DNA of 64,000 nucleotides from Botryllus schlosseri (lineage: Eukaryota). The DNA is taken from NCBI GenBank assembly GCA_051294905.1, contig CM119371.1, positions 8,496,001-8,560,000 on the forward strand. The letters are read 5' to 3'. How positions within the stretch are numbered: position 1 is the first letter of the stretch; every line of letters starts with the position of its first letter. The notes under the pieces were generated by a model. That model was given only the letters and a program-made list of their open reading frames with translations, searched no databases and was not told the DNA's origin. Positions 7,553 through 38,789 of this stretch are shown piece by piece. The position numbers and the translations under genes are program-made.

Positions 7553-8298
7553 CAATATAAAGACTGATGTGCAGAATTAAATCGCGATTATAAATCATTC
7601 GTGTCTAAGTTCACGCCTTCGTATGTCTCTACGTGGAGTATTAGTTGGAATAAAATGTTGTGTTCGATTTATACCGTAATGTTAGTCCGAGGTAGATTCT
7701 GGTTTCGTGTACCAGGGCAAGGAAGAGAAAATGAGTCGAGTCATCAGAAAATCGTTACTCGAGTCGGACCCGAGTCGAGACATGACTCGAGTCATTACAA
7801 CCCTGCTATGTCATGACTAATTGACAGCATTGTCACGGAGGGCAATGAAATAGTTATGGTAGAGAAATACTAATACTAACTCCATCATTTAGATTTTTAT
7901 GGCGTCATAATGAGCGATAACGGAATATCATACTCGACTCGGAACCTAATACTCGATTGAGAGTCGAATTCTTTAGGCACTCTATTTTAGTAAGTTCAAT
8001 AATTATGACTAGGACGAATATTTTTGACTTGTCGGAAATAGTCGACATACAGTCAAAATTATTGCGTTAGAGGTCATGAAGTGTAAAAATTGTTAATGAC
8101 AACTCCTACATAGCGGGTATCGATGTCAGCATATAGGCATCGAATTCCACGGTATGGTGGAAATACACAATAGAAATCTGACGTTATACGAATGAGGTGG
8201 TTAACTGTGTATGTTTTGATGTGGATACCTACACTCTTTAAACAAAGAGTGTGTATTTATGCTCGTGTACTACTCCTGATATACGTGGCTATGTATAT

Positions 8299-9910
8299 TA
8301 GGGTTGTCCAAAATTTGGAAAATCTTAAAAATTCCCCGTGATTGTGTCTCATTCCATAGATTATTGATAATAAATAACAATGAGCCCAAAAGAAGCTCAC
8401 GGGAAAGCCGTTAAGATTTCGGCCAAAGCGTTTTAAAGTAGCTGCCCAAGAATGGGCGTGACACCGACCATAGAACGGCGAGAAGACTAGTAATCAAATA
8501 ACCACGGCTCCTGATTGGCTAATTGGCTATGCTTCAATGATCACCACAGCAACAACTTGCTGATTATGTGCTCAAGGAGTCTGCTACCGGTGGGGATTCT
8601 GAAATCGCGTTGTTGGTAGGTTGGCAGATGATGATTTAAGATTAATTCATGACATGTTAAGGTACGAAATACATGATGAACAATCAACAGCTGCTTCACA
8701 TAAACTTTTACAGCATGACTGCTTTGCTGTGAAGGAAACGGCTGTAGCCTACATGCCGTGTTTTCATCGAGGGAAAGCAAAGACGCGTATGCAATTAGTG
8801 AACGAATTCCCCGTTTCAGAAGGGATCCATCATCAGTGAATACAAATATAAAGCTTGACCATGACACTATACTTTGTGTGAGCTTATTGGACTCCAGTTG
8901 TAGTATATAGTTGATATTTTGATACTCTAGGGATTGACTGAATCAGCCGGTTGTGCTTGGCAGTTATACTTACAGCAAATTGAATTCACATGTAAGTGTT
9001 GTCAAAGTCCTTAATGATGCTGCAGAAAAGAGGTGTAAAGTAAGCACAATGCTGGATATCATGTCCAAACTATGCTGGTTACTATGCAGTATAGTCTGTG
9101 ATTATCTTTACACCTATTTTCTGCGGGATCAATAGGGACTTTGACATACCACATTGGGCATAGCCTGTGCGAGTGTGCGTTATCATTAGGGACTTTAGCA
9201 ACACTTACAAGTGAATTCAATTTACTGTAAGCATCTGATGAGTGCCAAGCATAACCCGCTGATTCAGCCGATTCCAATATCATTCAAAACGTCACCTATA
9301 TATTACAGCTTGAGCCTAATAAGATCACACAAATTACGGTATCGTGTCATTGATAAGCTTTATATTTGAGTTCACTGATGATGGATCCTTTCCAAACGGG
9401 GAATTCGTTTACCGCTTGCATAAGCGCCTTTGCTTTCCCTCGGTGAAAACACGGCATGTAGGCTACAGCCGTTTCCTTCCAATAAAGCAGTCATGCTGTA
9501 GAAGTTTTTGTGAAGCAGCTGTTGATCGTTCATCATGTATTTCGTACCTTAACATGTCCTGAATTAATCTTAAATCATCATCTGCCAACCTACCAACAAC
9601 GCGATTTCAGAATCCCCACCGGTAGCAGACTCCTTGAGCACATAATCAGCAAGTTGTTGCTGTGGTGATCATTGAAGCATAGCCAATTAGCCAATCAGGA
9701 GCCGTGGTTATTTGATTACTAGTCTTCTCGCCGTTCTATGGTCGGTGGCACGCCCATTATTGGGCAGCTACTTTAAAACGCTTTGGCCGAAATCTTAACG
9801 GCGTTCCCGCGAGCTTCTTTTGGGCTCATTGTTATTTTTTATCAATAATCTATGGAATGAGACACAATCACGGGGTATTTTTAAGATTTTCCAAATTTTG
9901 GACAACCCTA
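8299..9910. mobile_element. 1.6-kb palindromic (foldback) element derived from a hATm-like transposon
   Basis: Arms of about 700 bp are reverse complements. TAGGGTTGTCC termini and perfect TSD atgtatat. Both arms carry decayed transposase motifs (DDLRLIHDMLRY...AASHKLLQH; VKVLNDAAE). Confidence 0.92.
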
Positions 9911-11133
9911 ATGTATATCCTTATCCACCCATGACACGCAAAACCAGAACCCAGCTGAGACTAATAGCGTGGTATAAAGCGTGGTCCTTATTAAAGTTAA
10001 ATCTCAGCATCTTTCATAAATGTGCTGGATAATACACCCACATTTACGAATCGCTTCGCGAGCCGGATGAACTGTTCTCGCCCCGGCCGGATGTGGCCTG
10101 CGAGCCGTAAATTTAACACCCCTGGTTTACACCATTAGTGAGAGCAAAGGTTAATTAAATGGAATGCGTTTGGCGAGTGGCGGGTTTAAACCCTGTTGTA
10201 ATGAAGGCAACCGATCAAGTTCCCGTCACACGTACGAGACAACCATAAACCTTAGAATGATGATGTGGTTGTTTCTTGCGCATATACAGACAGAAATCAA
10301 CAGAGACAGGATGCACCATATCGTACGCCTATAGCTATGTGCTGGAGTGTATTCTCAAGGAACACACAAGACGAAACGTCGCCAGTATACTGTACTTACT
10401 GCACTGTGCTGTTCTTATTCTAATCCTGGTTGTATATAATATAATATATCATAATATATAATATATATATAAGTACAGCCGACACATGCATAGCAAAAGC
10501 GAATTTATTGTTGATTATAACCAAGATAATATCGTTGTCAAGTATGCGATTGATTATTTTCTAACCATATGTTAAATTCCACCCTCCCATTGCTTGGAAG
10601 AGGAAAATCTTTGGGACATGCTACTGGTCATCACACGGATTTTGTTTCGATAGCTTTCTATAACGATTCAGGCTTTGAATAGTATAAGTTTTGCATTTTT
10701 TGTGATGTGAAGTTAAAAAAGTAAAGATGATCTGGGTTTCCTTGGTTTGTCTCATCGGACTTTATGTGATGGAGTATTGGGCACGCTCGGCGCCTCAGCT
10801 TTCCTGGGTAATGATAAACTGTGAATTTATGTTTGTGGGATAAATTTCTTTTATGAACTGCATCACGGGTTGACACGGCCAGAATTGAAGCTGCGCGCCT
10901 CGAGCATAATTCGTGTATTTCATCTCACCAATCCTATTTGTTCACATAGTCATTATGTGTTCAAAATTTGTGGATGTTCACAGCTCCTGAATCAGAGTAC
11001 TCGAATTAAATTCTTTAGTTTCGACGCGCTATTCAAATAAAATTTCTCAAATATTGTAGACTTTCAATTTAGTGTCCTTGCATTTTTAGTATTGTCTGAT
11101 ACATCAACTATTTACCATTACGTGATTGCCATC

Positions 11134-11206
11134 ATGGCGGAAGGGGGTGAGGACCGAAATTCTGGGGGCACAGGTGTGCCATCGTCAGTATTACCCGGGG
11201 AAAGCA
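11134..11206 (+). CDS. NLR N-terminal cassette A, coding exon 1 (MAEGGEDRNSGGTGVPSSVLPGES)
   Basis: Good Kozak context (ccatcATGG), donor GCA|gtaagt in phase 1, paralogous to 17484-17559 including the flanking non-coding sequence. Confidence 0.7.
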
Positions 11207-11425
11207 GTAAGTAAAACTTAAATATTTGAGTTCCTATTTATTTCTTCAACATTATCCATATAAAATCATGTTTAAGTCACTGAAATATTATATTATTAGC
11301 CCGCTGCATAATCTAGTACTGGCAAGACATTATGGGAAGTTTCCATGATGCAATTTGATTACAAATGCTTATAAATGAGTATACATCGGAACTCGGAACT
11401 ATTACAATATTCTCGGGCGTCTCAG

Positions 11426-11575
11426 GATCAGCAAGTTTGGCAGTAGTCGAAAACGTCAATCAACGGATCATGAACAGCTCGGTTAACGTTGTGACGGAAG
11501 ATCAGATTACCGTGAACAAGATCACCAACAACTACACCATGGATTCTGGAAATGAAGCAATTCCAACAGACCAAC
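11426..11575 (+). CDS. NLR N-terminal cassette A, exon 2 (Asn/Val-rich motif)
   Basis: ctcag|GA acceptor and CAAC|gtgagt donor, 150 nt, phase 1-1. Encodes SASLAVVENVNQRIMNSSVNVVTEDQITVNKITNNYTMDSGNEAIPTDQ. Paralog of 17783-17926. Confidence 0.75.
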
Positions 11576-11619
11576 GTGAGTGTTTTACCAGGAACTTTGT
11601 AGTGCAGCTTGTCAGACTA

Positions 11620-11900
11620 TGGATTACTAACCTACAGACAAGTCCAGTCGTTACGTTCTGGCAAGCATTACACTTATTGCAGATCAAACCACAACACCAA
11701 CCATGCAATACTATCAATTGTAACGGACTATTACAAAACCATCAAGCAAAAAAATGGCTGCAGCATTTTCATCGACCTCCTCAAAGCTTTCGACACTGTG
11801 AACCACAGAATTTTAAGATACAAGCTTGAACACTATGGTATCAGGTGTATTGCAGCAACTATACTTAAAAGCTACCTGGCAAACTGCAAACAATTTGTTA
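11620..11900 (+). mobile_element. CR1/L2-type LINE reverse transcriptase fragment
   Basis: IFIDLLKAFDTVNHRILRYKLEHYGIR...LKSYLAN motif. Confidence 0.85.
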
Positions 11901-12175
11901 AACAATTTGTTGAACTGATCAAATTTAGTATGGCAGCAGTACAGAACGACGCCGCGCGCTCTGTAGCCACTATACCAGCATTAGGATTAGTCTTAGTGCA
12001 ACCTACCTTGAAATGAAATGATGTCCCGTCCAATGTTCTTTGCTATTTTCAAACAAGTTTGGTGAAATTTGTCACAAATGTTAAACACTCAGCAACGGGA
12101 ATGCGGATTTAAACTTGGCACAAGACACTATATGCATACTATTAGACCAGGGATGGGCGACCGGCGGCCGTAGAA

Positions 12176-14604
12176 TAGGGTTACCATCAGACATGGGGTG
12201 ATTACTTCATGAATGTAATCGATTGCGATTACGATTACTTCTGAATCACGCGATTACGATTACGATTACGATTACAGCAAAATCAGGAAGTAGTCGATTA
12301 CGATTACGATTACATTGGAAAAGTAATCACGATTACTCACGATTACATTTATTTTGCATGGTAGTAGTTATATTGGTTGGAAGACAATACATGGATTGCG
12401 CTGAAAAGGCCTAATGATATAACAGCTGTCTTTACAAAAGATGGGACATTTCTCTGTTACGTCATAATGTACCTATTGCCCATTTTATAGAGGACGGTTT
12501 ATCCCACACAACGTTTTGCATTCTTGCCAGGTCCATAACTGCCGCACCCCAAATTCCCCAATAGGGTGCGGAGAGTGGTTGCTGGGGAGGGTACTCGCAA
12601 AAGTATTTCGTAAACCAACATAAATTATAAGAGTATTTTCGATAGATTTCATTAACTTGGAAATTCTCTTTAAGCTTTGCGATTTAAATGTCTCTAGATA
12701 GCTTGATTTGAAAATGCATATGTCTCCCCTTCAAGAAATAGGGCTTGTATAATTCATAGTAATCGGCATTTCGGTGCCAGTCAATACCGCTCCTTGACAC
12801 ATCAAAAGACATGTGAAGTTTCGGCCAACACGAGACTCCACGAAGTGTGCTACTAAAGAAAGACATTGGCCGAAACTTAGATAATGTTTCCATTGTCAAT
12901 AGCCGGGCTGGGTGGGCGTGACTAACAGTCTATTCCTTTCAATCTGAGCCCACGATGCAAATGCCACCCGGGCACCCACAGAGGATTAGACATGAAAATT
13001 TGTGCGTGCGTCTCACGCAAGTTTTTCTTGTATTCTGCTATGTTTGGGGCACTACAACAATATCTTTTGGCTATATAACAGACCGGAGGTCACGAATTAA
13101 CAACATACAATAAAGTAATTATTCCAAGATACCAGATGTTATAATTATGAATTACGCGCCCCCTGCTCTTCAGGTAAATCTGGCCATCGGGCGCTGAGAT
13201 AGGATTAAAAACGCAATATAATGCAATTACCAATATTATTGATTAAATTCAATCTTCAACTTCAAAATTGACTACTCTATGAGGGCCCAAGACCAATGTT
13301 TGGGTGGGGGAAACTTTTGCTGTTTTGATCCTGATTCTAGCTACAACCCACGCTAACATGGTATATAAGCCGATGGCTATGGCGGCAGGTCCAAATGTTC
13401 AATAAAGAATTGTGACATAGCGATTGGCGCCCGTTTTGAGAAGAATAATATGAAAATACGAGAACGTGAACTTAACATTCTGCCGTCAACTTGATGCGGA
13501 TAATGTAATGCAAGCTTCCATTACGAAAACGGCAAAACAACGGCTCGGTTATGATATATATCAGCAGCTGTTGATTTTAATGCTTCGTTGTGGAAACCGA
13601 AATGTTTTTTTTGACGAGTACCAAATTTCAAACCTTTGTCTGGTGTACGTTCGTACCATATAGGCCTACTGCTCGCCAAGCAGCACGGTTAAACTGCAAT
13701 TAACTATAGAATTAGAACTATTACATTCAATAGTTTAACTATAAGCAGAACCAAACATCAATACAAAAGTTGCTATTTTGACTTAGGCTGAGATTGAGAG
13801 GTGATTAATTATCCTGTTGCGAAGTAGTGGTGTCTGAAATGTATTGATAACCCGATATACAGCACGGTGGCTTTTCTTACAATCACACTAATGTACATCG
13901 AATATCTATTTACTATGTGTGGACACTTCTTACGCAAAGACGAGCAAAGCTAATAGGCTACCTCTGACGTAATAATGACCAGTGGCATTTCAAATCAGAC
14001 GTTTACGCTCTGAATAACTGGTATATTATCTCTTCCTTGTTCACGAGTGTTTAGTTTATGTCACAGTCCTTGGACAAATACAAAGTAATCGTTCTTTCAC
14101 AAAGAAATCGATTAAATATGGGAAGTAGTCGATTACGATTACGATTACTTCGGGATTTTTTCGAATGTAATCGATTGTGATTACGATTACTTGAAAATGC
14201 TGTAATCGTCGTAATCGATTACGATTACTAATCGCGATTACCCCATGTCTGGTTACCATACGTCCTCTTTTAAGAGGATTTGTCCTCTTTTTTGACTTTT
14301 TTGAACGTGTCCTCGGAGGACGCCCTTTTGTCCTCTTTTTTGAGATTTTGTCCTCTTTTTAGAAAATTTAGGTCACATTTAGAGCAAAATGCGAGTGATA
14401 TGCCGTAAATTAGCACAGAAGGGACGCTCCGGCGGATATTTCGGAGTGAAAGACGGTAATTTGAGCTCTGAGCGAAAAGGTGACCTTTTTTAAAGCAACT
14501 ACCTAGCAAATTCACCGATTTTTGAGAATTCTTCTCCGGTTTTGCAAGTCTCAAATTTCTGAAAAAGTGTCCTCTTTATAGATTTCCAAAATATGGTAAG
14601 CCTA
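12176..14604. mobile_element. hAT MITE (TAGGGTTACCATACGTCCTC family), split by a 2-kb insertion in its left TIR
   Basis: Perfect TSD ccgtagaa; right end ATATGGTAAGCCTA; relatives at about 17290-17412, 35837-36174 and 38123-38445. Confidence 0.88.
12188..14251. mobile_element. Non-autonomous hAT element with (GATTAC)n subterminal arrays
   Basis: CAGACATGGGG...CCCCATGTCTG TIRs; perfect TSD gttaccat. Confidence 0.93.
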
Positions 14605-15555
14605 CCGTAGAAGGGAATTTGTGTGGCCTTCGACACATAATTCAATTAGTAAGTGTTGGCGGCCGTCGACATGCAAATAGAAATTACAAATTCACTCCCA
14701 AATGGTTCAAGAGATTTTAATTATTCTTAAAATTTTCTTCGCGCTCCGCGCAATTCAACATAATTTCATTTTTCGAATCTGATATAGTAGTATGCCCTTC
14801 TCAATATGCGCAGGAATCGGAATCGTGTGCTCCTCGCGAAATAAATTTGCTGATGGTACATTTGGGCGATTTCAATATATTTCCGCTATTGCCACTACCG
14901 ATACAATCGACAATCCTGATGGGGTGTCAAGAAATATCAGCATGCAACAAAGTGACTAATGATGCATTATCATTTATAACTTGCCCTAAATTTTCGAAAG
15001 CACTCCCTCCATGAACCTACCGGTGAATCTGATTACATGGGCGGATAAATGATAAATATTTGAAAGTAATATGTGATATTGCTACTATTAATTACGGAAT
15101 TCATTCGTGAATCTGAAACATTTTCGCGCCCAGCGCGACAATATGCAATTCCAGCCACTAATCATAACATTTCCACTCGCGATTTCCACTCGCGATTTCG
15201 ATTGCGTACAATAGGCCGTTGTGAAAAGTAGAATAGTCCGGAGTTCAACGGGAATGGATATTGTCAGATTAACATAGGTAAATTGCGCCCAGTCTGTTCA
15301 TTACTGGTATGCCCTGGAATGCGACCTAAGGCTATATAAGTAATCGAAATGCGACCGTGATTAGCAAAAAGATGCCTACCTCGGTATTAGATGATGTACT
15401 ATTTTAACATGACGATAAGTGAAGGGGGGATCAGGGGAGCGCAATTTTTTTGACCATCGCCAAGGGAGGCGCATGCCCAAAAAGGTTGAGAACCCCTGTG
15501 CTAGGCAGTCAGCAATCACGGACAGCATGGAGGAGAAAAAACCGGGGGTTCAGAC

Positions 15556-17084
15556 CAACGTTCCCTCTAATTTTTCAAGAGTCTGCACAAACACGTCAAC
15601 TCACTGCGCAGGCCCTCGGACAACAGTGCGCAACCACCCTCCATTAGGGTGATAAAACTAACCCATACCCCCTACGGCTCTAGGCTTCTTCCGGTACTTA
15701 TCATGTACTTTGGGTGCCCATTTAGTAGTAGCGTCCCTAAACGCGCGAAGCGCGAAAAAAATCTATAATTCATGATTGCATCGGCCAATATGATCGGGAA
15801 TTGCATATATATTATATTATATTATATTATTTTATATATTATATATATTGCATATATTTCTATCCTCTCCCCGCTCACATAATCAGATTTATCGGTAGAG
15901 CTGATCCAGTGAGGTGTGTTGGAATAGATAGGCTCTCTAAATAATAATAACACATCTTCGGGCGTACCCGTTGATATAATGACTTCGTTACATGATGCTA
16001 TTTCGTGCCCCCTATCTGCTATGTCAAAAGATATTGAAATCGCCAAAACGTACTAAAGTAAAAGACGTACACGAATTCAAATTGGTACCTCTTAACTGGA
16101 AAATAATGTTCCCTCGATATGGCATTTGTCTTGTTGTGGGACCCGCATCGCCAGGACAGGAACATTCGGCGCCAGCCATTTAGGCGCCCATGGATATGGT
16201 CAATTACACATATATTGGTATATATCGAAGTTTTCGATCAGCACCGGGCAGCCTTTTTCGCCCAAGGTTTTCTCGATGCTGATCGTTCTGGCGCCCTTCT
16301 TGGATTCGCATGTTACATAGCCTTTAACTTCATATGTCTTAACGCGTCATGGTGCGGTAATGGCCGACGCCCAACTGCCCGTTTCTATAAATCATGCCTA
16401 ATTTTTGTTGGGAAAGGGTACCCAATAATCAGATATCTTACAATAATAAAACGAGCGTAACGCGAAAAAAAATTCCTGAAAAATTTCAAAAGATACACCA
16501 TGATTTATGGTAATTCTCGAAATAATTTTGGACCCCCTTCGAGCTTGGCCCCTCCAATTGGGGGTTTGGGGTGCGAAAGTTACGGTCCTGAGTAAATCCT
16601 ACGCAATGTTCATGCCATGCGAAGAAGACTATCATTCGTTAGTTTATCGCAGATTAACTTCGAGCTAAACCATTGTTATTCATAACTTTGTTAAACCAGG
16701 TTATTTCGCCTTTCCCAGAAAGTAATGCGCTATTGAAATGATATCAGTATCGCTCACGTGTACAAGGCCATACCAAAAAAATATCTTCCGTGAGGCACAG
16801 GTCATTGTGAACTCTAATTTCCTCACGGAGCGCAATAGTTACCTTTGCGGGGCGCACTTGTACCCCGGTTTCAGACTTCAGTGATAACACTATTTGGCCC
16901 CGGCAATGTTCCATCTTAATTTTCACGAATCTGTGCGCCTGCGTGGTCCATTGGACAACAGTGCGCAACAACTATAAAAAAAAACATCATTTCTGATTTT
17001 CTGTGCGCAACGTAGATTTTCTGTGCGCAGAGACCGTTTCAGCACTGCGCATTTGCGCACGTGCGCAGCTTAGAGGGAACATTG
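15556..17084. mobile_element. Non-autonomous hAT element with an internal inverted copy of the 26609-27437 family
   Basis: CAACGTTCCCTCTAA...TTAGAGGGAACATTG termini; perfect TSD gttcagac; short relative near 51070-51249. Confidence 0.9.
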
Positions 17085-17483
17085 GTTCAGACTAGATGAC
17101 CTTACTATAAACGCCGTATCGTATCTCCGTCGCCAAAGCATCTCGATGGTGCAGGCAAAACAGAATACCATAACTCTCTCTCTCTCACTTCGTGTTCGGT
17201 TGACTAAAATAACGCCAACTTTCCGGCTCACCTCTCGAAATAGCCACCGGAACGTTCGTTACTTCAATGCTGATTTAGTGAATCTCAGTCTACGTTTGCC
17301 ATATATTGAACCAAAATTATCCAAAAAAGATTACATTTGGGCATCCTCCGAGGACACTCTCAAAGAAGTAAAAAAAGGACAAATTCTCTTAAGTGGACGT
17401 ATGGTATCCCTAACATAGAATGTTATTATGTATTTTCGGTATTGTCATATACGCTAGCTAATTAGTACCACGTTATCAATACC

Positions 17484-17559
17484 ATGGCAGAAGGGGGTAA
17501 GTATAACAATTCTGATGTCGCTGATGTCAAGCCTACATCAATATCGCCCGAAATAAGCG
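17484..17559 (+). CDS. NLR N-terminal cassette B, coding exon 1 (MAEGGKYNNSDVADVKPTSISPEIS; may end at 17496)
   Basis: accATGG start. The donor at the position homologous to cassette A is G|gcgagt (17560). An alternative consensus donor G|gtaagt lies at 17497. Both are phase 1. Confidence 0.7.
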
Positions 17560-17782
17560 GCGAGTAGCTCGATGTCTGTTGTATTGAGCTCAGACTACTT
17601 AAAATACATGATTATTTATCCATCTGAAACAGCTTCGAAGTTCTTTAAATACTGTACATTTTGCTCGTTGCGCTAATAATATTCCGGAGGATATCGAAGA
17701 AAATAGAAGAATTCATGTTATTTTCTAATAAGGCTCTGTATGGAACCTGGCACGCAGTACAATAACCATGTGTTTTTCTTAG

Positions 17783-17926
17783 GATCCGCAACTTTGGCCG
17801 AAGGAGAAAATATCAATCTGAAGTTCACAAAGAGCTCTGTTAACGTCGTGGCAGGAGATCAAATCAGTGCAAAGATCGTCTACCATGTTACAGGTGCTGA
17901 TGGAAAAAAACCTTCCGGGATCAAAA
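17783..17926 (+). CDS. NLR N-terminal cassette B, exon 2
   Basis: tttttcttag|GA acceptor and AAAA|gtgagt donor, 144 nt, phase 1-1, in frame with the NACHT exon. Encodes SATLAEGENINLKFTKSSVNVVAGDQISAKIVYHVTGADGKKPSGIK. Confidence 0.78.
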
Positions 17927-18649
17927 GTGAGTATAATGCTCTTTTATGCAATACGGTGTGCATATTTGCTGGTGAATGGTCTGCTGAAACCCCATTTTCA
18001 AGGAATTGCAAAATATGTGAAGAATTTTTTCAGGACCAGAAGTCATGGCTTCTGTGGTATTAGTATTCTGATGCATAAATTATTCACAATGATATCCATA
18101 ACCCCTCCATAACGATAGTTTAGTTGGAGACATTTCAGAATGGGGCTCTTCAGCATGGGACTTCGCAAACCTAACGAAGTCATAATTGCCCCTTTCCTAA
18201 TCATACTTGTTTCGAGATCACGTTACCGTGTTTTCGCCACGGTTCCATATGGTGCGCAATCATAGTTATAAAGTATGATTAGATTGAACTTTTGCGCCTC
18301 TACTGGGGAGCCAGTACATGGTCAGCCAGTACATGGTCATTCGTGATAGCGTTCGTAATCGCATTCGTGTTCGGGACTCTGCTCATCTGAACAGAATATT
18401 TATCTACGGGATACGCATTACGTGTTTTGTTCGTACTCGTGACTTCTGTTCGCGATGAGTTGTAAGTGGGAAACTTTAGCACTTCGCTTCGTTGTTTGTT
18501 TGAATACCCATCTAAATTTGTTAGCGGCACTTTCTGGGAATTAATATCGAAGTACAATCACAATTCCAGATAAAGAGCTCAGAATTTGCGGAGCGATGAT
18601 TTGTTTATGACTTGATTAATTACGGTCTGAAAACGAAACGAAGACTTTT

Positions 18650-19450
18650 GAGAGATAAGATTCCACATGGCAATTACCCTGTGCTATCGGAAATGCCAAA
18701 ATTGTTTTCATTACCCCGTACTATCTCGCTGCTATTGAAACAGTAAGAGTGCTGTCTAATCGTAAATGCTTATATGCATGTCTGACTAATATCATTATAT
18801 TAAAATATCCAAATTCACCTCTTTCGAAATCGTCCCAAATTCTTGAAGTTTGAAGTATAATCTTTTGATCCAGGTCATTTTGCTACAACATCCGTAAATA
18901 GAAGATTTGCATCACAGATTCCCCGGATGTTGATTGAGTAGATTTTTTTCTATTCACATAAGCAAACTCGTCATCATGTGGAGCAATTATAAGGATATGA
19001 GATCAATCAATGCAGCCGATTACGCCAGGAAAACCCGCTACTTGATAAAAACAACGTTTAACGGCGACGACTTCAGTGTGATTTATTGGCATGTAAATGA
19101 AATTTGGAACTATATCGAAAGCATTGAATCCCAAAACGCGACTAATACTTTACTAAGAGTTGGCTGGGATACTTTCAAGAAATATTTTCTGCAATTGTGA
19201 AAGCTTCCTGAACCGAGCGTTTTAAGAGATACCAAAACTTTGTGCTGTATGGTTAGATTGGTTAGGTCTGCCGAACGATGATGACCTAATGGCTCCATGC
19301 TATTCTTCACTCCTGGCAATGAACAGAGATATTCGATTTCATATTTTCTCATTCTAAATTTTGTAACTTCTTTTTCGCTTAATTTGTTCAAGTCAACATA
19401 TTCCTGATCTTGACATCCTCCAAAGTGCGATGTGCGGTTATTTACTAAGA
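18650..19450 (-). pseudogene. PIF/Harbinger DDE transposase relic
   Basis: KVLVSLKTLGSGSF...VSQPTLSKV, then VAGFPGVIGCID*SHI, FAYVNRK and SINIRGICDANLLFTDVVAK*PGS; stops and frameshifts. Confidence 0.9.
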
Positions 19451-20697
19451 AATAACGGGCAGCCATAATGCCGACATAAGTCTTCCCGAATGATGATCGT
19501 ACTAACACGAACGGTATTGAGTGTTCGTGGTCTGCCGAAGATATTTGTCAGAATTTCCGAACATTTTTTCATGGTGTTCGCGAATAGATTGCACGGAATA
19601 CCGAAGATTTCTATTCTTACGCAGAGAATGTAATGACCTCCCTGATGTGACCATGGGTATGAATGTCTCCCATTCACCACGCCATCAGAGATTATACGAC
19701 ATGTAGAAATCTGAGATTGTTTTCATTTGCAAATATCCTCACCATGATCTTCCATTACTCTTCATCTTCAATGCCTGCATTAATAAGTGAATCTATAGCC
19801 TACTGGATACCATCCGTATTCCCAATAATCTTCTTCAATAGATTGTCTCAAAGGTACATAAATTGTCGTTATCAGTGTAAATCGCGAAGAGAAAACACCT
19901 GCTATTGCTGCACTTTATACATAAAGTAGTTCATCCAGTCTCGGATTGCCAATTGTGTAAAGGTTCCGCATTTCTGTTATTTCAACAATTGTATAATATC
20001 AGCATGACGCACCACATCATGTTTTATCAGTAGTCGCACCCGATCTCTGGCCACGTCGCGGCATTCATTTTCGCATTTGGATTTCTGATTCCAACGAAAT
20101 GGCAAATGCTCCACGGCTGCAGAAAGGTTGATCTACAATCCAATCGTTACGCAATGAATGAACGTTCTTACTACCTTTCTGTAACCTTAGCTTAGGTTAT
20201 GCCGGCTGTCATGGTGATAACGTCACAATATGATAACTCGACCATGTCGGCAACAACAACGACAACTACACTGCGGATCGTCGCTCAGTATTCTTACCAA
20301 AACATACAGCGATAGTCATGTCGCGGTAAGGAAGACTGATCTACTGCACGGATAGGTATATATATTTGTAATGGCAGTCAGTTATACAGCAAAGATTCAT
20401 TGGAGTATGGTAGTGCGCAAGAAGATACTACAAGAGAATTTCGCGCAATATGGTCCAGAAGCGGTACCAGAATTAAATATGGAAGAAACATCGTAATTGT
20501 TTTGAGTTACATTGAGCAACAGCTGCTCTCTGGCCCGTTGAAGATGGCCATCACACTGTTTTAGGCGCAACAAGATTAGGTTTGATGACACTGTCCTAAT
20601 TAAAAATATAACATTTGCCGAAATTTCTTATACTTTACTGCCGAGTAATCTATATTTTTTATCAGCCCTTTTGTTTCAGCCTTGGTAACCTCTATAT

Positions 20698-22640
20698 CAG
20701 GAGTTCTCAGCCTTCTTTTGACTGTGGCTCATTTCGAGTTTCAAAATGTTCTGTGGCCCACCTCTTATTCTACGCAGAGTCATAGTCCTGTTCAATGTGT
20801 GGTAATAGCCGCTGCCGATACGACTATTTCCAGTGTTGGGATGACTCGAGTCACCTTTTCGTATTATTTGACTTGACCCGAGTCACTTTGCTAAAACGAC
20901 TTGACTTGACTCGGCGTATCAGAAATGTGGATTGACTCGTAACTTGGAGCAAAATTTACGAGTCAATTTCAAGTCATGAAGTAATAGCTGTCGATGAAAA
21001 TCACTGTATCTTGCTCAGGCTCGGATTGTTCGCGAAACGCCGGTGTAACCCGTGAGAGCGAGCAATCCTTCAATATAAGTGTGTTTTGCTTATCCTCCAT
21101 TGTTCTGTCACATATAAATTGACCGCAAACAAAGTGACCAAAACTTACGTTGTCGTCAACTGCAGTATGTATTAAACCGAACCTCTTGTTTTATTGAAAT
21201 TGAATTCGAATATAGTTTATAATAGTCCTCAGCCATTGGCACGGGCTCGAATTGTGTTATATCAATTGGTAATGTACTGCATCTTATCAATTCGTTTCTC
21301 TATTCTCTTTTGTGACTGCGGTAACTATAAACGGGGGCTATGTAATTAGTAATTACTTACGTAGTTCAACAGTTCTACGTATATGTGAGCGACACAGCGC
21401 CTTCTTCCGTGTATATTTAACTCTATATTCGTTCATCGCTTCAGAATCATGCCTCATTCTTCGAAAAGGCAACTTGACTTGAATTGTGACTTGACTCGTG
21501 GCTTGACTTGACTTGACTCGACTTGACTTAAGTCACCTTCAAAACTCGAGTGACTTAACTTGACTCGAGTCAAAATATGTAATGAAAGGACTGGTGAATC
21601 GAAGGTAGTGACTTGATCCCAACACTGCCTATTTATCTACAATATGTACATTTTTGTCTTACTTATTATATCCAAACACAGGCCGTAAGAGACACGAAAT
21701 CGCGCGAAGAACATTTACAAGTTCTATAACTCTCAGTCAACAAACAACAATGATTTTGGGCCTCTTTAAGCACTCCCCGATTTGGGGTTAGGAGTGCACA
21801 TAACTCTCACGTCGGGAAACCCAACGATCTAATCCCCACAGCCATTATGTCCTGGCGGTTTTAGCTCCACTATGGTGGGGAATAATATTATCATTCTGGC
21901 CCCGCTTCAAACAATTCTTTGGTGAATGGGATACGTTGCTATAGAGAAGCGAAGAACGAATTTTTATATGCTAGCTGTACAATGTACAATTGTACATAGT
22001 ATGTCTTGTACCTATGGAAGTCGCGTTGCCAGGACATTAAATCCAATGTTACAAACAATTCATGTTACTCGTACATTATGTACATTGTAAAATGACTTCA
22101 AGGCCACACATTGTCAGAGCGACTTCAAATCTTGATGTTATGTGCTAAATCATCCATACATTAAGATCGCTGCGGTGATGCCGTATACTTCCACAGGAAG
22201 TTTATAATAGATAATAAGTTGCAATTGTGGCTATTCTTATGTTACAATGATACGAACTGCCGAAGTATAGGCCTACCAATATTCTACGTCAAATGCATTT
22301 CAGTCTCAGTTTAATGCTCATCCTTTTCAAGGGCATACGACGCATGACAGTGCCGGAATACTTGGTTTCTTCAGCATTAATGTCCAGTTACTTTATAATC
22401 GAAATTATTGCCGTTGCTGTTGGCCGTAGGTTGTCATGGCCAGAGGACAAAATCCGCTGCTTTCCCTCCCATCTTCGACTTGTATAGGAACATAGCCGAC
22501 GTATAATTCGATAATATGAATATAAAAATATATAACTAAATTTTCACAAATTTTATAATTTTCCAAAAAGGGCTGTGGCCCACCTCACATTACTCTTGTG
22601 GCCCACCAGTGGACCATGTCCCAGCCTTTGAGAACCTCTG
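20698..22640. mobile_element. Non-autonomous hAT element
   Basis: CAGGAGTTCTCAG...TGAGAACCTCTG termini; flanks ctctatat / ctctctat. Confidence 0.7.
20831..21627. mobile_element. hAT MITE with (GACTT/GACTC)n arrays; inverted relative of 51985-52915
   Basis: CAGTGTTGGGAT...ATCCCAACACTG TIRs; degenerate TSD actatttc / cctattta. Confidence 0.88.
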
Positions 22641-23531
22641 CTCTCTATATAAGAAAGTTTAGTTATTACTAGGGAAAGTTTTTGTTGTAGTTGGAAAGTT
22701 GCACTTACTATTATTATAAGTTGCAGTAAAGATTTGTATTTATAATTTTTAATATATTAGGATATTAGATACTCGAAAAGTTTAAGATTTGCAGGGTATC
22801 TGTTTTTATTCGCTTCTTTCTTCGTTATTCAATTGATCATGAACACAATTTTATGTTCTTTGGGTTTCAAACTACATGACACCATTTCGCTGTCCCCTCA
22901 TGCGCGCAGAGCTGTCAGATACGGTACTTTCTTATCTCACGAACGGCCTAGCGAGACCGCTGAAAATTACATGTTTTGCAAGTACGCAGCAAAAGAGTAA
23001 CGCAACACGCGGAAGTTAAGTAATATTCCGCGAAAATCCATACATATCCATTAAACAAGTCAACTACCGCAACTCAAACCCCCTATACTAGGTCTGCAAA
23101 CTTGACCAAAGGCATTGCAGCAAAACGCAGTGTTCACGACTTCAACAAAATGAATAGCCTGGAAAGGTAACCTAGTAAATGTGTCATTGTCAGCGGTGTC
23201 GCTTAAGCGTCCGAGGTGAAGGACGTCAGATTGAAACAAAAGTGAATAAATCAAGCTTTATATTATATATATAGAGAGGGATCAAGCACTGTCGTCTTTG
23301 GATGTGGTTTCTGAACTTCTAGCTTACAAGCCATGGCGCCATCGATATCATTAGAATGCAACTAATCCACCACATAGCTCTTTTTTGAGCAAATCGAGCA
23401 GAACTGATACTGATACTGTTACTGACTATCGAGCTCATTTTAAGTGACATGCCACTTCACGCTTGATTTTTTTTCTGTACTACTTTTACTTCTCATTCAA
23501 TGTACATGCCTCCTCTTTACATCGCCTAAAC

Positions 23532-24109
23532 CAGGGCCGGCCAACCCGTGGCCCGCGAGAAGGTTTCGAGTGGCTCGCGAGGCATTTCTCGAAATTACTT
23601 ATAATATAAATAAAATATATTAGCCAGGTAATTCATTGTGAACTTGCAAGAGCAACCTAAAATTTGATTAGCCTGATCGTGGACACGCGACTTGGCGTCT
23701 GCACTCGCTGAAAGATCGTCAGCGATGAAATCTTTGCACAAAGTGATAGACGCAACGTTCACTGAGCTCTTCGATATTGATGTCCAAGCGCCGATTAATC
23801 ATGTCCTGGCCAAACGAGCCCAGCTGTATACAGGAGCGACCCACCACAATATATGCAACTGACATTATTTTATGGACCTATCTTTCCCTACCTTCGAACA
23901 TATTAGCGCTCGCGCGGCTGGGACGTTTGCACAGAGTTTTCGTGACATAAGTGTTAGCGATTTTGTTGTTTATATTTTTGTCCTTTTTACCTTCGCCTAA
24001 TCCGGTTCGCTATTATCGGACGACTAAAAGGACATCAATATGCAAGTGGCACGCGCAATGCTTCGTAAATCTCATGTGGCCCTTCAGCCGAAAAGGCTGG
24101 TCACCCCGG
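23532..24109. mobile_element. Old hAT MITE
   Basis: CAGGGCCGGCCAACC...GGCTGGTCACCCCGG termini; TSD degenerate. Confidence 0.6.
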
Positions 24110-24576
24110 GCCAAGGCCAAGGTGGGTGTCTGATTCCAAAGAACAGGAAGTGGTTTCGAGTCCGACCGAGGTTGACGTCCTAATTCCGATACTTAAGTGT
24201 TGGAGGTTTACCTAGGCCCCTCCTCGCCACCTCATCCGCGTCAGCGGTGTCATCCAAAAAGCCTAGAGGTGGGCCGTGCTATAAGTCGACAGTTACGGAA
24301 AATAAGAAGAATATCGGCCTTGTGTAAATGACAATAGTAGTCGATAAACACCATGTATACCCCAAAACACACAAAAATAACAACAAGTGGTTTCGACACC
24401 TTTCTTTCTTTTCATAGTATCGCAACTTTGTGGTGTATTGAACTGATAAAAATTGCTAACAAACCGAACCGAAAGAGAACCATACCAGAATTAGTTTTAT
24501 AGCATTTTCTTTTAATGACTTTTACAAATTTTGCGCAATACTTGATAACAGTTACAATAAAAATTATTTTGTACAG

Positions 24577-26118
24577 GCGTAGACTACAGGAAATTGATAA
24601 CGGTTATAAACGAAAATACTCGACAACAAACGGAAAGTAGCATTCGCGAAAACTTCAAGAATGAATTTCTTCACGAGCCTGACTTTGAAGTTTTCCCCAA
24701 GATGAAAAAATACAATGTTGATGATTACTACAAAGGTCGTCTTCCCGAAAACAGTTCGAATGAAGAATCTTTTCGTGATTCTAGAAGGAAAGCTTATCAA
24801 AATCAGTTGATAGAGGAAGTCGGTTTTTACCGTCAATCCGACAATGGCGGTAAACCGATAACAATGGAAGAGATAATGGAATGGATGGCAAAGTCGGAGA
24901 AATTACCTTCCGGTGAAAAAGTTGGTTACACTGCAATCGTCGCCTCTGCAGGATCGGGCAAAACTACTCTCGTGCGTAGAATTGCTCGGAGAATGGTCGA
25001 AATTCCCTCCGCGAAGGAAAAGCATGAAGCGGTTCCGTTAAGGAAATCTAATATATTTCGTAGACTTATCCGAAGCGCTCTCGGAACTTCTTCCGGGAAT
25101 AAAAAAAGTAGACACTCTTTTTCCGAACCGAAACCAAAGGCAAAAATGGTACATTACGTCGAATTGAAGAACATGAAAAAAGAAATCTGTATAAAATCAT
25201 CGAAGTTTTTATTCGGCGGTCTGTTTGAAACTGAGTATGAAGAGGATGAAGCTTTCAAATGGCTGCTTAAGAATCAATCTGAAGCAATTATCATTTTTGA
25301 CGGGCTTGATCAAGTGAAGTGGGACTTTGAGGAGTCTACAGTACGAAATATCAAAACGTTTGAAAGAGCGAGCACTTCGACCATCATGTACAACATCCTA
25401 TCTCGCAGAATCCTTCGCCAAGTCAAAATCATAGTGGCGTCGCGTGAATTCAAAGTCTCCGAGTTACCGGCGCAAGCACGTCCTGAAGAAATAATCACAC
25501 TCAATGGCCTCACACTGGAAGACGCTTATAAACTGTTTACTTTTCTGCTCTGCGAGAACGGGCAGCGTCTCTGGGAGAAGATTGAAATCATGTCACCACG
25601 ACTATTACAACTAGTATCGGTCCCGGTTTTCCTGATTTTGATAGCAGTGGTGATGGGAATCAATCCAGATATACCTCCTCCGTCTACCGTGACAGAACTA
25701 TACAGCAGGATCCTGTTAGTCTTACGGGGTGTGGAAAATATCCGAAAACGCAAAGAAATCCTCTCAATAATCAACAAATTGAAGGTAATGGCGTTTGAAG
25801 GCATGGAAGAGGGGCGAGTCGTATTCTACAAAGCAGATTTGGATCGCTTTGAAGTTTCTGCGGACGAAGTACAGGATTTGATGACGAAAGTGCCTAACAA
25901 CAACATCCTCAGCTGTCACTTGATGGAAGATGACTTTACATTCTTCTTCTGTCATCAAAGCATGCAGGAATTTCTGGCAGCTAGTTTTATCTCGGAAATG
26001 GAGATCGGAATGTTCTCTCGCTTTGATGGCAAACATCTACATGAGAAACGATGGTCCGTCGTTCGAAGATTCGTTACAGGCATCGTTTACATGAAATCTA
26101 TTAGCGACCTTCACAGTG
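24577..26118 (+). CDS. NLR-type NACHT (STAND NTPase) exon of a multi-exon immune receptor gene
   Basis: 510-aa ORF with Walker A (AIVASAGSGKTT), Walker B (AIIIFDGLDQ), sensor 1 (IIVASR), VPVFL, winged-helix FCHQSMQEFLAA and HD2-like RWSVVRRFVTG. Acceptor ttttgtacag|GC at 24577 and donor AGTG|gtaagt at 26119; both ends phase 1. Confidence 0.95.
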
Positions 26119-26608
26119 GTAAGTAATCATGGTTTTACGCGGCTATTCTGCCGCAGTACCTACCTGATTATTATGGGTCGCCTATAGTTTATCATGACTT
26201 TGATGGTATTGTCACAATCGAAGGGGTGAAATAGTCGAAATATCTTAAATTCATACACGGCTAGTAAATAAGTCTTCAGTCGGTTAAATAAAACTTATAT
26301 ATCTAAAATGGGCCTCAAGTTCGCAGATAATTGAGTGTGAGCGCTACACTATGTAACATTGTTTGTTTGTTTCGGGTATTTATGGTGTCTGTCGACTAAA
26401 ATGGTCATTTACACCAGGCCTATGTTTTACATTTTTGATTTCGCTTCCGCCGACTTGTAGCACGGCCAACTTCTAAACTTATTGAACGATAGCGCTTCCG
26501 CGAACGAGATGGCTAGGATGAGACTAAATAAACCTCGAACACTTAGGTATGAATTCTGGACTCGATCTTTGTCGAACGTGCGATATTGATGCGTATGAAA
26601 TGCTCATG

Positions 26609-27437
26609 CAGGGCTGTAACTGCCTCACCCCTTAACCCCCGCGCGTTTTCAAGTCGCCAAGTATCTTGCTTATTGGGTACCCTTCCCCCAAGAAAAAATA
26701 TGCAAGATTTAAAGAAATGGGTATATCGACGTCGACCATTACCGCGGCACGACGCACAAAGACAGATGAGTTTTAGGCCATACAACATGCGACTCCAAAA
26801 AGTGTGCCAGAACGATCGCAGCGAGAAAACCGTGGCCGTAAAGGACTTCCCTTATGCTGGCCGAAAACTTGGTTATATATACAAAATACATATACGGTAG
26901 GTTTATTTGTCCATATAGGCGCCTAAAAGACTGGCGCCGAATGTTCCTGTCTTGGCAATCTGAACCTCACCAGACAAATACGATCATGCAGGAAAAAGTT
27001 ACATGCAAGTGAAGAAATACCAATCCAGAATCGTGTGATCTTTCAGTCTAGTACGTTTGGGCGATTCTATATTTTTTGATATAGCAGAAAGGACGTCACG
27101 AAATAACATCATGTAACGAAGTCATACCAAAGGGTCCGCCCGCCTTAAGATGTTCATTTTTATTTTATTTACAGACTGTACAGTTACAAACACACCTCAC
27201 TCAGCTCTACCGGTAAATCTGATTACGTGAGCACAGAGAAGCTAAAAATTGATAGCAATATATATGCGATTCCCGATCATATCGACCGATTCAGTCATGA
27301 ATTACATCGATTTCTCGCGCCTCGCGCGTTTAGACGAGGGAAGCCGACTCACGACTCACCAGCAGAAGTCCGGTCTATCACCATGTGGGGGCCCAGGGTG
27401 TTTTTATCGGGGCTGACGAAGTGTTGTTACGGCTCTG
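26609..27437. mobile_element. hAT-like MITE in the NACHT-LRR intron
   Basis: CAGGGCTGTAAC...GTTACGGCTCTG termini; perfect TSD tgctcatg; homologous segments at about 2520-2930, 15640-16590 and 34980-35235. Confidence 0.9.
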
Positions 27438-27534
27438 TGCTCATGTTATTGTGATAGACATAGTTCAATGACTCCATTTGAACCCTGCCTCATCACAGTC
27501 GCGTGAATTATTCAATTTTCACGTAAACGATTAG

Positions 27535-27893
27535 GCAAGAAACATTACGAATACCGGTACAACGACATTGCGTATTGCTTGACAGTCTCGGATCAAACAC
27601 AGAAGCAGCAAGTTCTATCTCAATCGCTCCTTTCACAACTTCACGATAAGTTTGAATACGAAGACGATCGCATGGAAATCTATACAGCAATCTACGAATC
27701 GGGCGACGACAGTCTAATGAAAGATCTTGCCGTCATCGACGCGTCTCACATCCCATTGAATCGCGATGAAGCTCATATCATTGGATCGCTTGCAGCAAGG
27801 AATGAAAACCTTGGTTATTTGAATTTATCGTTCTGCAGTATTGACGACGAGCTTTTGAGCATCATTGCCAGGTGTCTGGTAAATCGAATACAA
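27535..27893 (+). CDS. NLR post-NACHT/LRR exon (acceptor at 27535 or 27586)
   Basis: Both acceptors are phase 1 and compatible with the NACHT donor. Encodes YTAIYES and an RI-like LRR (NLGYLNLSFCSIDDELLSIIARCL). Donor CAA|gtgagt, phase 0. Confidence 0.85.
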
Positions 27894-28664
27894 GTGAGTC
27901 ATACTTTTTCAAATGATGCATTTCGTAGGAAAACTATATTATGTGTTATTCTGAAATTCATCTCATTGTGAAGTCTCCCTTCCTTAGAAACAGTGCGATA
28001 TTTGCAACTTTTCCCTGGCGATGCACTATTCGCAACAATCGCTTAGGTGTCATAATTTCACATTACTCAGGCCTATTGCGGGAAGGATAGCAATTTTCAA
28101 AATCATATTCAATGGTAAGAAACCTGTTCAGGAAACATACATTATGTAGGAGTATTTCAGGAGTATTTTTATTGATTTTTCGAATCGAAAGCAATGGCTG
28201 AAGGTTTATTACCTCGAATCCTAGCTTCTCTAAATACAATTCAATTGATTTCGTTTTTTGGAAAGTATTTACGCAATTATGGCATAACTTTACACAATTT
28301 TATTTTTCACGACTTCTGTTTAAAACATATTTTAAACAATGTGTTTTAAAACATCCAACTCTGGCCACCTCTCTCGCCAAAATGAAATTGAAAATGAATG
28401 AAAATTAGCCATCATTTGCTGAAATCAAATCGTTATCTCAAAAGAGGACAGTGTATTCCTAGAATCGGTTGAAGCTGTTTGAATGGTTTATTAAGAGACC
28501 GTGGCTCTAAAACTAGGGTAATTTCCCTTTATTATGGGGATCACGAAGATTTTGAACATTCTCAGCTTCCAAAATATGCCCTGAGGTTGCTTTGATAGTT
28601 TGACAATATATTGGCATACATTGTATTCATATTTCATTATGAAGCCCGCTCGTAGGCACTAGAG

Positions 28665-37331: not shown

Positions 37332-38789
37332 GTAGTACTTATCATCCAGTATTAGTTGCATTGGATATATGGAACGTTCTTCCGTCGCCATCGCACGTTT
37401 ATCATTGAATTCTGCCGCACAGTATGAGTCCCCTCCACATGAATCCACATTCCATGCCCGGGATATCTACCGCAGTTGCGGGGTTCGTGATCCCTGGTAA
37501 TTTGTTTATCTAAAGCAGGGGTGTCAAACTCAACTGGCGTCACGGGTACGGATTTAAATCTTCACAGCAATTGCAGGCCGGTCCAGTCAAATGATGCCAA
37601 AATATTTTCTCAAAATACATGCCCTTGCTTTTCACTTGAATGCTCAGTTATAAAGCTTAGACACGTTATATTTATTGCGGTATATCACGTGCCATGTTGA
37701 TCTATTCCATCAAGATCTTTATTCGCAATCAACCGAATTGGCACGATCACGATGATTGGCCTGTTAAATAGTTTCATAAATTCCCGACGATATAGGTTGC
37801 CATGTTGCTATGATTGCTTTGTTTTAGTCGGAATTTGACAATATAGTTCTGTGTGTGTTGTGAGGAATACAAGCGATTTAACTGTACTCGGAGACGTTGA
37901 AATTTTGTCCATTACTTTTGCATCGTGATTCGGGTTTCCCCAGAAGCCAAGGAGATGTTGAGTCACAAGCGCAAAAGGAGTGCGACCACAGATATTTAAA
38001 TTATATTTTTGTGTCATAATTATATTATCCACTTCTGTAGATAACTACTTTGTGGTCCGTTTCCCCACGAAACGGTGAACTCACTGAGCACTTTTTTTGC
38101 CTTCTCGGAAGTTAGTGTCAATTAGGGTTACCATATTTTGGGAATCTGAAAGAGGACACTTACACAAATTCAGACTTACGACAAAGGAGTAAAACCCAGA
38201 AAAAATTGATAAAATTATTCCAAGTTTAAAGTTGGCCTAATAAAAAAGGGTCCCGATTCTGGCTCAACTCCCAAAAGACTCGCCGAACCGTTACTTCAGT
38301 ACTTATTTCCAATTTCTCAGTTGAATTTTCACATACATTCAACCAAAAATTTCAAAAAAGGGGACAAATTCTCAAAAAGATGTCATTTGAGCGTGCTGCG
38401 GGGACACTTTCAAAAAAGTAAAAAAAATAGGACGTATGGTAGCACCAGTGTTATTGGCAGTGACTTGTTGCTGATGGTGACTTCAGTGTTACTTCAACAC
38501 CACGGTCGGATGCTTATAATGTGGCCTATGAACAATGAACATGTTCGACATTTTCTGACTTGAGAGAATTTAAGTGTTAAGTCGTACTAAAAATCTAAAC
38601 ATTTGTTAAAAATGTGACGGATAATGCAGCCACTTTTTTCAGAATCGCCTAGAAGGCCAGATGCGGCCCGTGGGTCGTACCCCTGATCTTAAGTATGTTG
38701 CAATGCATCATGGCCCCTGGTGAAATGGTCAACAATATTGGTCAGCATCATTGTAATACACAATAATAATAATAATAATAACAATAATA

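Follow-up and report, generated by a model that had tools for sequence, protein, structure and literature searches.

A candidate intermediate of N-terminal cassette shuffling at an NLR locus of Botryllus schlosseri

Structure of the locus

A 64,000-nt stretch of the Botryllus schlosseri genome (NCBI GenBank assembly GCA_051294905.1, contig CM119371.1, positions 8,496,001 to 8,560,000 of the forward strand; hereafter the window, in which coordinates are counted from the first letter) contains a NACHT exon preceded by two homologous first-exon cassettes, A and B, in an arrangement which may represent an intermediate in the turnover of N-terminal modules within a large NLR gene family. All exons lie on the plus strand. 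Exon 1A (11134-11206, 73 nt) comprises 24 codons, beginning with ATG, plus one nucleotide, and is followed by a GTAAGT donor, a 219-nt intron (11207-11425) and the motif exon 2A (11426-11575, 150 nt; P0002), which has an AG acceptor and a GTGAGT donor. In cassette B, the ATG at 17484 opens an exon of the 76 nt usual for the family (17484-17559), here with a GC donor (GCGAGT), and the motif exon 2B (17783-17926, 144 nt; P0003) again has an AG acceptor and a GTGAGT donor. Both motif exons are phase-symmetric (1-1), as is the NACHT exon (24577-26118, 1542 nt; AG acceptor, GTAAGT donor, phase 1 at both ends). The distance from cassette A to the NACHT exon is 13 kb, and the intron between cassette B and the NACHT exon spans 6.6 kb.

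A script check found phase 1 at every junction and no stop codon in any of the six exon combinations 1A-2A-N, 1A-2A-2B-N, 1B-2B-N, 1A-2B-N, 1A-N and 1B-N, where N denotes the NACHT exon. The locus thus possesses two complete first-exon units with start codons, either of which joins the common NACHT exon in frame, with the reservation that the usual donor of exon 1B is GC. A nucleotide profile of exon 1 with 60 nt of its flank had two matches in the window and no others, one in A (E 1.7e-36) and one in B (E 5.9e-45); the motif profile likewise had exactly two, and tblastn found no second NACHT anywhere in the window. The cassette positions, phase-1 ends and NACHT acceptor at 24577 given in a preliminary description of this DNA were all reproduced by the script; its statements that no NACHT exon lies between the cassettes and that 1A-2A-2B-NACHT is in frame also held, and the donor that follows its exon 1B, at 17560, proved to be GC and not GT.

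The NACHT exon matches the Pfam NACHT model (E 1.2e-15; 58.1 bits, cut-off 26.7), with the Walker A motif GSGKT in its translation, and the winged-helix model NOD2_WH (26.3 bits, cut-off 23.1). Among annotated proteins, the window is closest to NLRs from two ascidians, Styela clava and Clavelina lepadiformis; a search for homologous proteins of near length gave only single-exon genomic frames of 27-52% identity, none with a spliced N-terminus. No Pfam leucine-rich repeat (LRR) model matched any of the 79 plus-strand frames of at least 50 amino acids between 26100 and 50000, a search which short LRR exons would escape, and nothing was found in the window with the LRR regions of the Styela proteins as a tblastn query. 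The N-terminus consists of the 73-74-residue cassette: neither exon 2A nor exon 2B matches a Pfam family of the death fold (CARD, PYD or DD), and their sole Pfam match is a weak, unrelated one of exon 2B to Thioredoxin_10 (E 0.17). The locus represents a single NLR gene from a large family of ascidian type that is restricted to its lineage and in which a two-exon cassette, made up of a short ATG exon and an Asn/Val-rich motif exon of about 48 residues, replaces the usual death-fold N-terminus. A probable next exon lies downstream of the NACHT exon within the open frame 27507-27971 on the same strand, as judged from conservation with paralogs; B-type paralogs (see below) match 27438-28236 at about 80% and A-type paralogs match 27575-27899 at 72-77%, and the frame gave no Pfam match.

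Origin of cassettes A and B

We sought relatives of both cassettes in the 495.5-Mb assembly of the species itself, in which the window lies on contig C1. Members of the motif-exon family are spread across the genome, where the A peptide matched 83 places and the B peptide 150 at E <= 10; the two motif-exon peptides of the window are 47% identical to each other (E 3e-9). Exon 2A is 82-86% identical in protein to motif exons at C1:2861523, C1:3751637 and C1:196341 (L002, L003 and L004), the nearest relatives of cassette A, which are located on the same contig 4.7-8.3 Mb away. In DNA, cassette A is 86.6-87.3% identical to them over about 1 kb, a stretch that covers the intron and extends some 530 bp into the upstream flank, with exon 1A (82-85% identical to its paralogs) falling below intron 1 (91%). 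These A-type relatives have a NACHT exon of their own 9-19 kb downstream, and the NACHT exons of three A-type paralogs (PA1, PA2 and PA4) are only 45-47% identical to that of the window.

Cassette B presents a different picture. Two B-type paralogs, PB1 and PB2, align colinearly with positions 17185-28236 at 78-86%, and the only breaks in the alignment are insertions specific to the window. Exon 2B is 72-83% identical to the motif exons L010-L016, and for the two of these examined further, L014 (PB1) and L015 (PB2), the NACHT exons are 79-81% identical to that of the window; homology to L014 begins at 17185, so that the 5′ flank of cassette B occupies 17185-17483 on the plus strand. Among the ten closest NACHT exons (74-83% identical), eight have a B-type motif exon 0.2-17 kb upstream, and the remaining two have only a motif exon of intermediate type, 18-41 kb upstream. 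In none of the ten was a second cassette found among the matches listed.

The 5′ flank which cassette A has in common with A-type paralogs (10603-11133, plus strand) starts where homology to L003 and L004 begins, approximately the point at which the homology of A-type paralogs to each other also begins. From there paralog homology extends over 10603-11622 and resumes over 12187-12251, with about 10 nt of overlap at the resumption. Inserted between the two segments, 47 nt past the donor of exon 2A, is a 564-bp fragment of the reverse transcriptase of a long interspersed nuclear element (LINE; 11623-12186, plus strand), identified by an RVT_1 match in the open frame 11603-12016 and flanked by near-perfect direct repeats of 9-10 bp. 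The homology to A ends exactly at 12252, where a 2.0-kb dispersed repeat element begins (12252-14254; more than 25 places at 89-95%), while the paralogs PA1-3 keep matching each other beyond that point. Cassette A is a 5′ module of about 1.1 kb embedded in DNA rich in transposons, and there is no trace of a NACHT exon of the A type.

Judged by these relationships, A and B belong to different subfamilies of one large cassette family. The colinearity with B-type paralogs and the B-type exons upstream of close NACHT paralogs identify cassette B as the cognate N-terminus of this NACHT clade, with B, the 6.6-kb intron and the NACHT exon making up the ordinary gene, and point with good confidence to cassette A as a 5′ module derived from another subfamily. 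The preliminary description had called the cassettes duplicated, which is right as regards their homology but not as regards direct local duplication, as each has closer relatives elsewhere; a local tandem duplication was accordingly discarded. Its remark that neither cassette has stops despite clear divergence is true of the frames, but has no weight as evidence, because A and B are not direct duplicates. Its fallback, in which A is the remnant of a paralog, came close to what the comparison revealed.

Selection and splice signals

Changes private to A were scored against the base common to at least three of four relatives. They amount to 11.1% in the 5′ flank, 13.7% in exon 1, 6.8% in intron 1 and 4.7% in exon 2. 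The coding changes on the A branch are 13 nonsynonymous and 4 synonymous, with a ratio of nonsynonymous to synonymous rates (dN/dS) of 0.96, and the changes peculiar to A look neutral by this measure. In simulated neutral evolution at the intron rate, the ATG, the frame and all three splice dinucleotides survived in 27% of runs (P = 0.27), so that the intactness of A is no evidence of its use, and the argument that its open frame implies selection was set aside. The dN/dS test also has little power, and as a test of A's function it was dismissed because the B branch gives the same value. The NACHT exon, in contrast, is constrained (pairwise dN/dS 0.34-0.39 against PB1 and PB2, with 42 nonsynonymous and 27 synonymous changes on its own branch), indicating that the gene in its entirety is alive and must have a start.

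The signals around exon 1 were compared across 24 cassettes in which this exon is recognisable. The usual exon-1 donor is GT in 23 of them, the exception being cassette B of the window with its GC. Within exon 1B, only one GT donor is in frame: a perfect GTAAGT at 17497, which would end the exon after 13 nt, likewise in phase 1. Its paralogs have GTAAAT at this place. About 45 nt before the ATG, the cassettes carry an acceptor-like TTTTCAG, the AG of which is present in 20 of the 24; it may serve as the acceptor of an intron in the 5′ untranslated region or as a site of spliced-leader trans-splicing, a process which occurs in tunicates. Cassette A keeps this AG, as TTTTTAG (11083-11089) ending 44 nt before its ATG. 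The corresponding site of cassette B (17433-17439) has CGG at 17437-17439, whereas CAG is present in all five of its nearest paralogs listed. The upstream AG is missing in cassette B of the window and in L002, L004 and L047; PA1 and PA3 lack it too, so its loss is tolerated. Exon 1B has otherwise changed little, with one B-specific change in 76 nt, as opposed to 21 in the 223 nt of intron 1, and its ATG is kept.

Other two-cassette loci and a chimeric paralog

To place the arrangement within the family, 83 scored NACHT exons (out of 218 candidates) were compared with 93 motif exons (E <= 0.01; weaker ones were dropped), and same-strand motif exons up to 30 kb upstream of a NACHT exon were paired with it. 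Two upstream motif exons were found for four of the 83 NACHT exons, one for 40 and none for 39, so that a pair precedes four of the 44 NACHT exons for which a motif exon was detected at all. Of the 93 motif exons, 45 paired with no NACHT exon. All three other two-cassette loci of this comparison were checked for damage, with four further candidate loci left out. At C1:11.76 Mb and C1:16.40 Mb, each of the two motif exons has its own exon-1 homologue, and the proximal start codon has been lost. At C1:39.58 Mb, the acceptor and first codons of the distal exon 2 are deleted, and there is no exon-1 homologue within 600 nt of the proximal motif exon. Thus one cassette is damaged in all three, and both are intact in none. 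The comparison argues against a maintained switch, and the two-cassette loci fit birth-and-death turnover. As a side observation, the reverse complement of L076 (C1:39580871-39581878) contains at about 270-330, immediately upstream of a motif exon and in the usual place of the exon-1 homologue, a tRNA-like stretch, possibly a short interspersed element (SINE).

A further paralog, PA3 (C1:176500-196499; L004, L023 and L024), combines the two subfamilies. Its cassette is 98% identical to that of PA1 over 1182 nt, and the cassette together with much of its intron is 96-98% identical to PA1, while its NACHT exon belongs to the clade of the window, with 72% protein identity to the window's exon and 64% DNA identity to that of PA1. 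PA3 is a chimeric paralog, which indicates recent recombination between subfamilies and provides direct evidence of shuffling in the family. Both PA3 and the A-type cassette of the window, placed before a B-clade NACHT exon, show that motif type is not tied to NACHT group.

The motif and its occurrence outside NLR genes

An alignment of 56 motif exons yields the consensus SATLAEGENVNLxFxKSSVNVVAGDQINxNKxVYNIT. It corresponds to no Pfam family: the 56 members gave only stray weak matches, the commonest being EAD10 (three members, best E 0.0098), and none of them matched Pfam RHIM even at E <= 10. A profile search of the PDB returned nothing below E 0.16, with no RHIM or HET-s chain among the 20 matches listed at E <= 10; on these results RHIM membership, which had been considered for the motif, was rejected. 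The protein atlas contained no usable match. A profile search against 1.84 billion representative sequences gave 14 matches, of which 12 are short fragments of genomic frames and two are unrelated repeat proteins, and so small a number in so large a set marks the motif as lineage-restricted. The AlphaFold2 monomer model of the motif is uninformative, with a mean predicted local distance difference test score (pLDDT) of 63 and no secondary structure. The motif does align, weakly, to N-terminal repeats of Styela NLRs (hhalign E 0.06 and 0.097).

On contig C8, both of the two motif exons examined have same-strand NHL-repeat frames 3.6-7.7 kb downstream (Pfam NHL up to E 3.4e-25) and no NACHT nearby (3863738-3874554 and 3917728-3928544; L049, L050, L069 and L071). 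It is possible that the cassette also heads a family of non-NLR genes. Two more motif exons of the family are located at C8:3973816 and C8:4008646.

Comparison with known systems

The closest known parallel is the shuffling of N-terminal peptide exons in the NLR-B30.2 genes of zebrafish. According to the passages on these exons in Howe et al. (2016, Open Biol 6:160009, PMC4852459), N-terminal peptide motifs of about 30 residues are encoded on single exons, and their types pair with different NACHT groups via exon shuffling. The same passages (PMC4852459) describe a large lineage-specific NLR expansion with one big NACHT exon and short N-terminal motif exons, all of which is also seen here, where a short motif occupies its own phase-symmetric exon (150 or 144 nt, phase 1-1) upstream of one large NACHT exon. 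The likeness is one of arrangement. The host is of ascidian type, the motif is another one, and there are no fish proteins among its 14 profile matches in the set of 1.84 billion. In addition, the shuffled unit here is a complete 5′ module, with an ATG exon and upstream flank, and no B30.2 domain was seen.

The nearest annotated NACHT relatives are the X1 and X2 products of Styela clava LOC120338386 (P0006 and P0007), together with P0008, which align to 95-98% of the exon with an identity of 31-35%. These NLRs likewise have short N-terminal motifs rich in Asn, Val and Gln in place of a death-fold domain. Unlike the window, with its two divergent cassettes that each have an ATG exon, they contain up to four near-identical tandem units per gene. 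The two isoforms of LOC120338386, which are automatic gene predictions, begin at different starts, which are followed by about four and about two to three tandem units, respectively, of the faintly similar motif. There is thus a precedent in these predicted isoforms for the tandem or alternative use of motif exons envisaged in the preliminary description, although the likeness of the motifs themselves is weak, as the hhalign values given above illustrate.

A further comparison is with RHIM and HET-s motifs. The core of RHIM is (I/V)-Q-(I/V)-G, which is absent from the consensus of the present family. The passages on animals in Kajava et al. (2014, Sci Rep 4:7436, PMC4262963) report RHIM-NACHT architectures in amphioxus, and tunicates appear there to be without RHIMs. 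The resemblance consists in a short, non-globular motif rich in Asn, Gln and Val, which stands at the position used for homotypic signalling and can be found in tandem (PMC4262963). The present motif may also reside on non-NLR genes, namely the NHL-repeat loci of contig C8, as partner motifs in amyloid signalling do. The top full-text matches of a literature search included no account of N-terminal motifs of ascidian NLRs.

Interpretation of the two-cassette arrangement

We read the locus, with a rough probability of 0.55, as an intermediate in the turnover of N-terminal cassettes by exon shuffling, and not as a maintained two-way switch. Cassette A is a second complete 5′ module, which comprises about 530 bp of flank, both exons with the intron between them and about 110 bp of the intron that follows. 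It may have reached its position, or been left there, via recombination, duplication or deletion in introns and spacers that are long and filled with transposons. Since all junctions are in phase 1, a transcript started at A would be in frame only by joining exon 2B or the NACHT exon. In the course of time, either A or B would be expected to decay. The comparisons show that A originated in another subfamily, that B is the cognate cassette, that the frames are compatible, that the arrangement recurs and that the other two-cassette loci are damaged; we infer the route by which A arrived, as we would any transcription or splicing of A today.

Several observations weigh against it. Cassette A is fully canonical, with its ATG, both GT donors, AG acceptor and upstream AG, while two of the three exon-1B splice signals bear B-specific lesions (CAG to CGG upstream, GT to GC at the donor), a pattern to be expected at an early stage of a take-over by A. 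At two of the other two-cassette loci, the NACHT frame is open and an ATG is found only in the distal cassette, so that a distal cassette can, to judge from these loci, come to provide the sole start even where the NACHT frame has stayed open. The near-neutral dN/dS of A has no discriminating power, given that the B branch shows 9 nonsynonymous and 3 synonymous changes, and the X1 and X2 isoforms of Styela clava differ in both start and number of tandem motif units.

These same observations bear on the strongest rival, put forward in the preliminary description, to which we assign a considerably smaller though still appreciable chance, namely that the N-termini are working alternatives. Here A and B would each be transcribed from their own upstream region, or exon 2A would be spliced to exon 2B or to the NACHT exon, giving receptors with an A, B or A+B motif and different partners; in a variant, A is taking over as the main start. 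All the splice forms are in frame and free of stops, A is canonical where B has lost both the upstream AG and the usual exon-1 GT donor, the start codon survives only distally at two of the three other two-cassette loci with their NACHT frames open, PA3 already places an A-type cassette before a B-clade NACHT exon, the Styela isoforms vary in the corresponding way, and the 13 kb from A to the NACHT exon fit the 9-19 kb introns of A-type genes. On the other hand, the A branch is indistinguishable from neutral, with its 5′ flank diverging faster than its intron (11.1% versus 6.8%), no other two-cassette locus has both cassettes intact, the ten closest NACHT paralogs have no second cassette among the matches listed, and exon 1B is well conserved with its ATG in place.

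A bolder version of these ideas, which we regard as speculative and somewhat doubtful, holds that A is the active or rising start and exon 1B is being silenced, with transcripts of the form 1A-2A-(2B)-NACHT that would put an A-type or tandem A+B tail on a B-clade sensor, and that the Asn/Val-rich motif is a homotypic wiring tag shared with the NHL-repeat genes. If so, a swap of cassettes would re-plug NLR sensors onto other partners, in a metazoan counterpart of the motif-based NLR signalling of fungi.

It is improbable that A is a small gene in its own right, which would encode the motif alone as a decoy or adaptor and end in an exon or poly(A) site within 11576-17184. The C8 motif exons preceding NHL-repeat frames suggest that the cassette is not tied to NLRs, and A does have a conserved upstream flank of its own; but exon 2A ends in a strong phase-1 donor and not in a stop, the next 5.6 kb are taken up by dispersed repeats and the LINE fragment, no conserved coding exon came to light in the A-B spacer, where neither the protein nor the nucleotide profiles had further matches, and the dN/dS of the A branch is 0.96. 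Finally, tunicate genomes are highly heterozygous, and A and B might be two haplotype copies of one cassette misplaced in tandem by the assembly, but this was rejected as very improbable on their divergence (47% protein identity, different subfamilies, closer relatives elsewhere), with the surrounding DNA differing and containing distinct repeat elements and the same arrangement recurring at other loci.

Expanded NLR families diversify sensing and signalling alike. A complete 5′ module of one subfamily standing before an intact gene of another, with all phases compatible, is the kind of raw intermediate from which the shuffling of N-terminal tails could proceed, and taken together with PA3, the three other two-cassette loci and the NHL-linked motif exons it offers a concrete, testable picture of receptor-tail swapping in an invertebrate chordate. 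If A turns out to be joined by splicing to the NACHT exon here, this would amount to a natural experiment on whether a short motif sets signalling specificity.

Repetitive DNA and other features of the window

The DNA of the A-B spacer consists mostly of transposons. In addition to the 2.0-kb element that follows cassette A, it harbors a second dispersed repeat element of 1.5 kb (15550-17089), which is found in 8 places at 90-92%; at first look, the spacer with these two repeats gave 22,502 candidate matches. Upstream of cassette A, and not part of the gene, lies a foldback-type repeat element of 1.6 kb (8291-9918), which matches itself in reverse at 87% and has dozens of genome copies at 97-99%; it appears to represent a very young and recently active transposon family. 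Within the colinear region, PB1 and PB2 have no counterpart of the window segments 18306-19641, 21013-22581, 24160-24386 and 26609-27437, which are probably insertions in the introns of the gene. Further downstream, an open frame at 38693-39403 has a weak likeness to zf-RVT and is probably another retroelement fragment.

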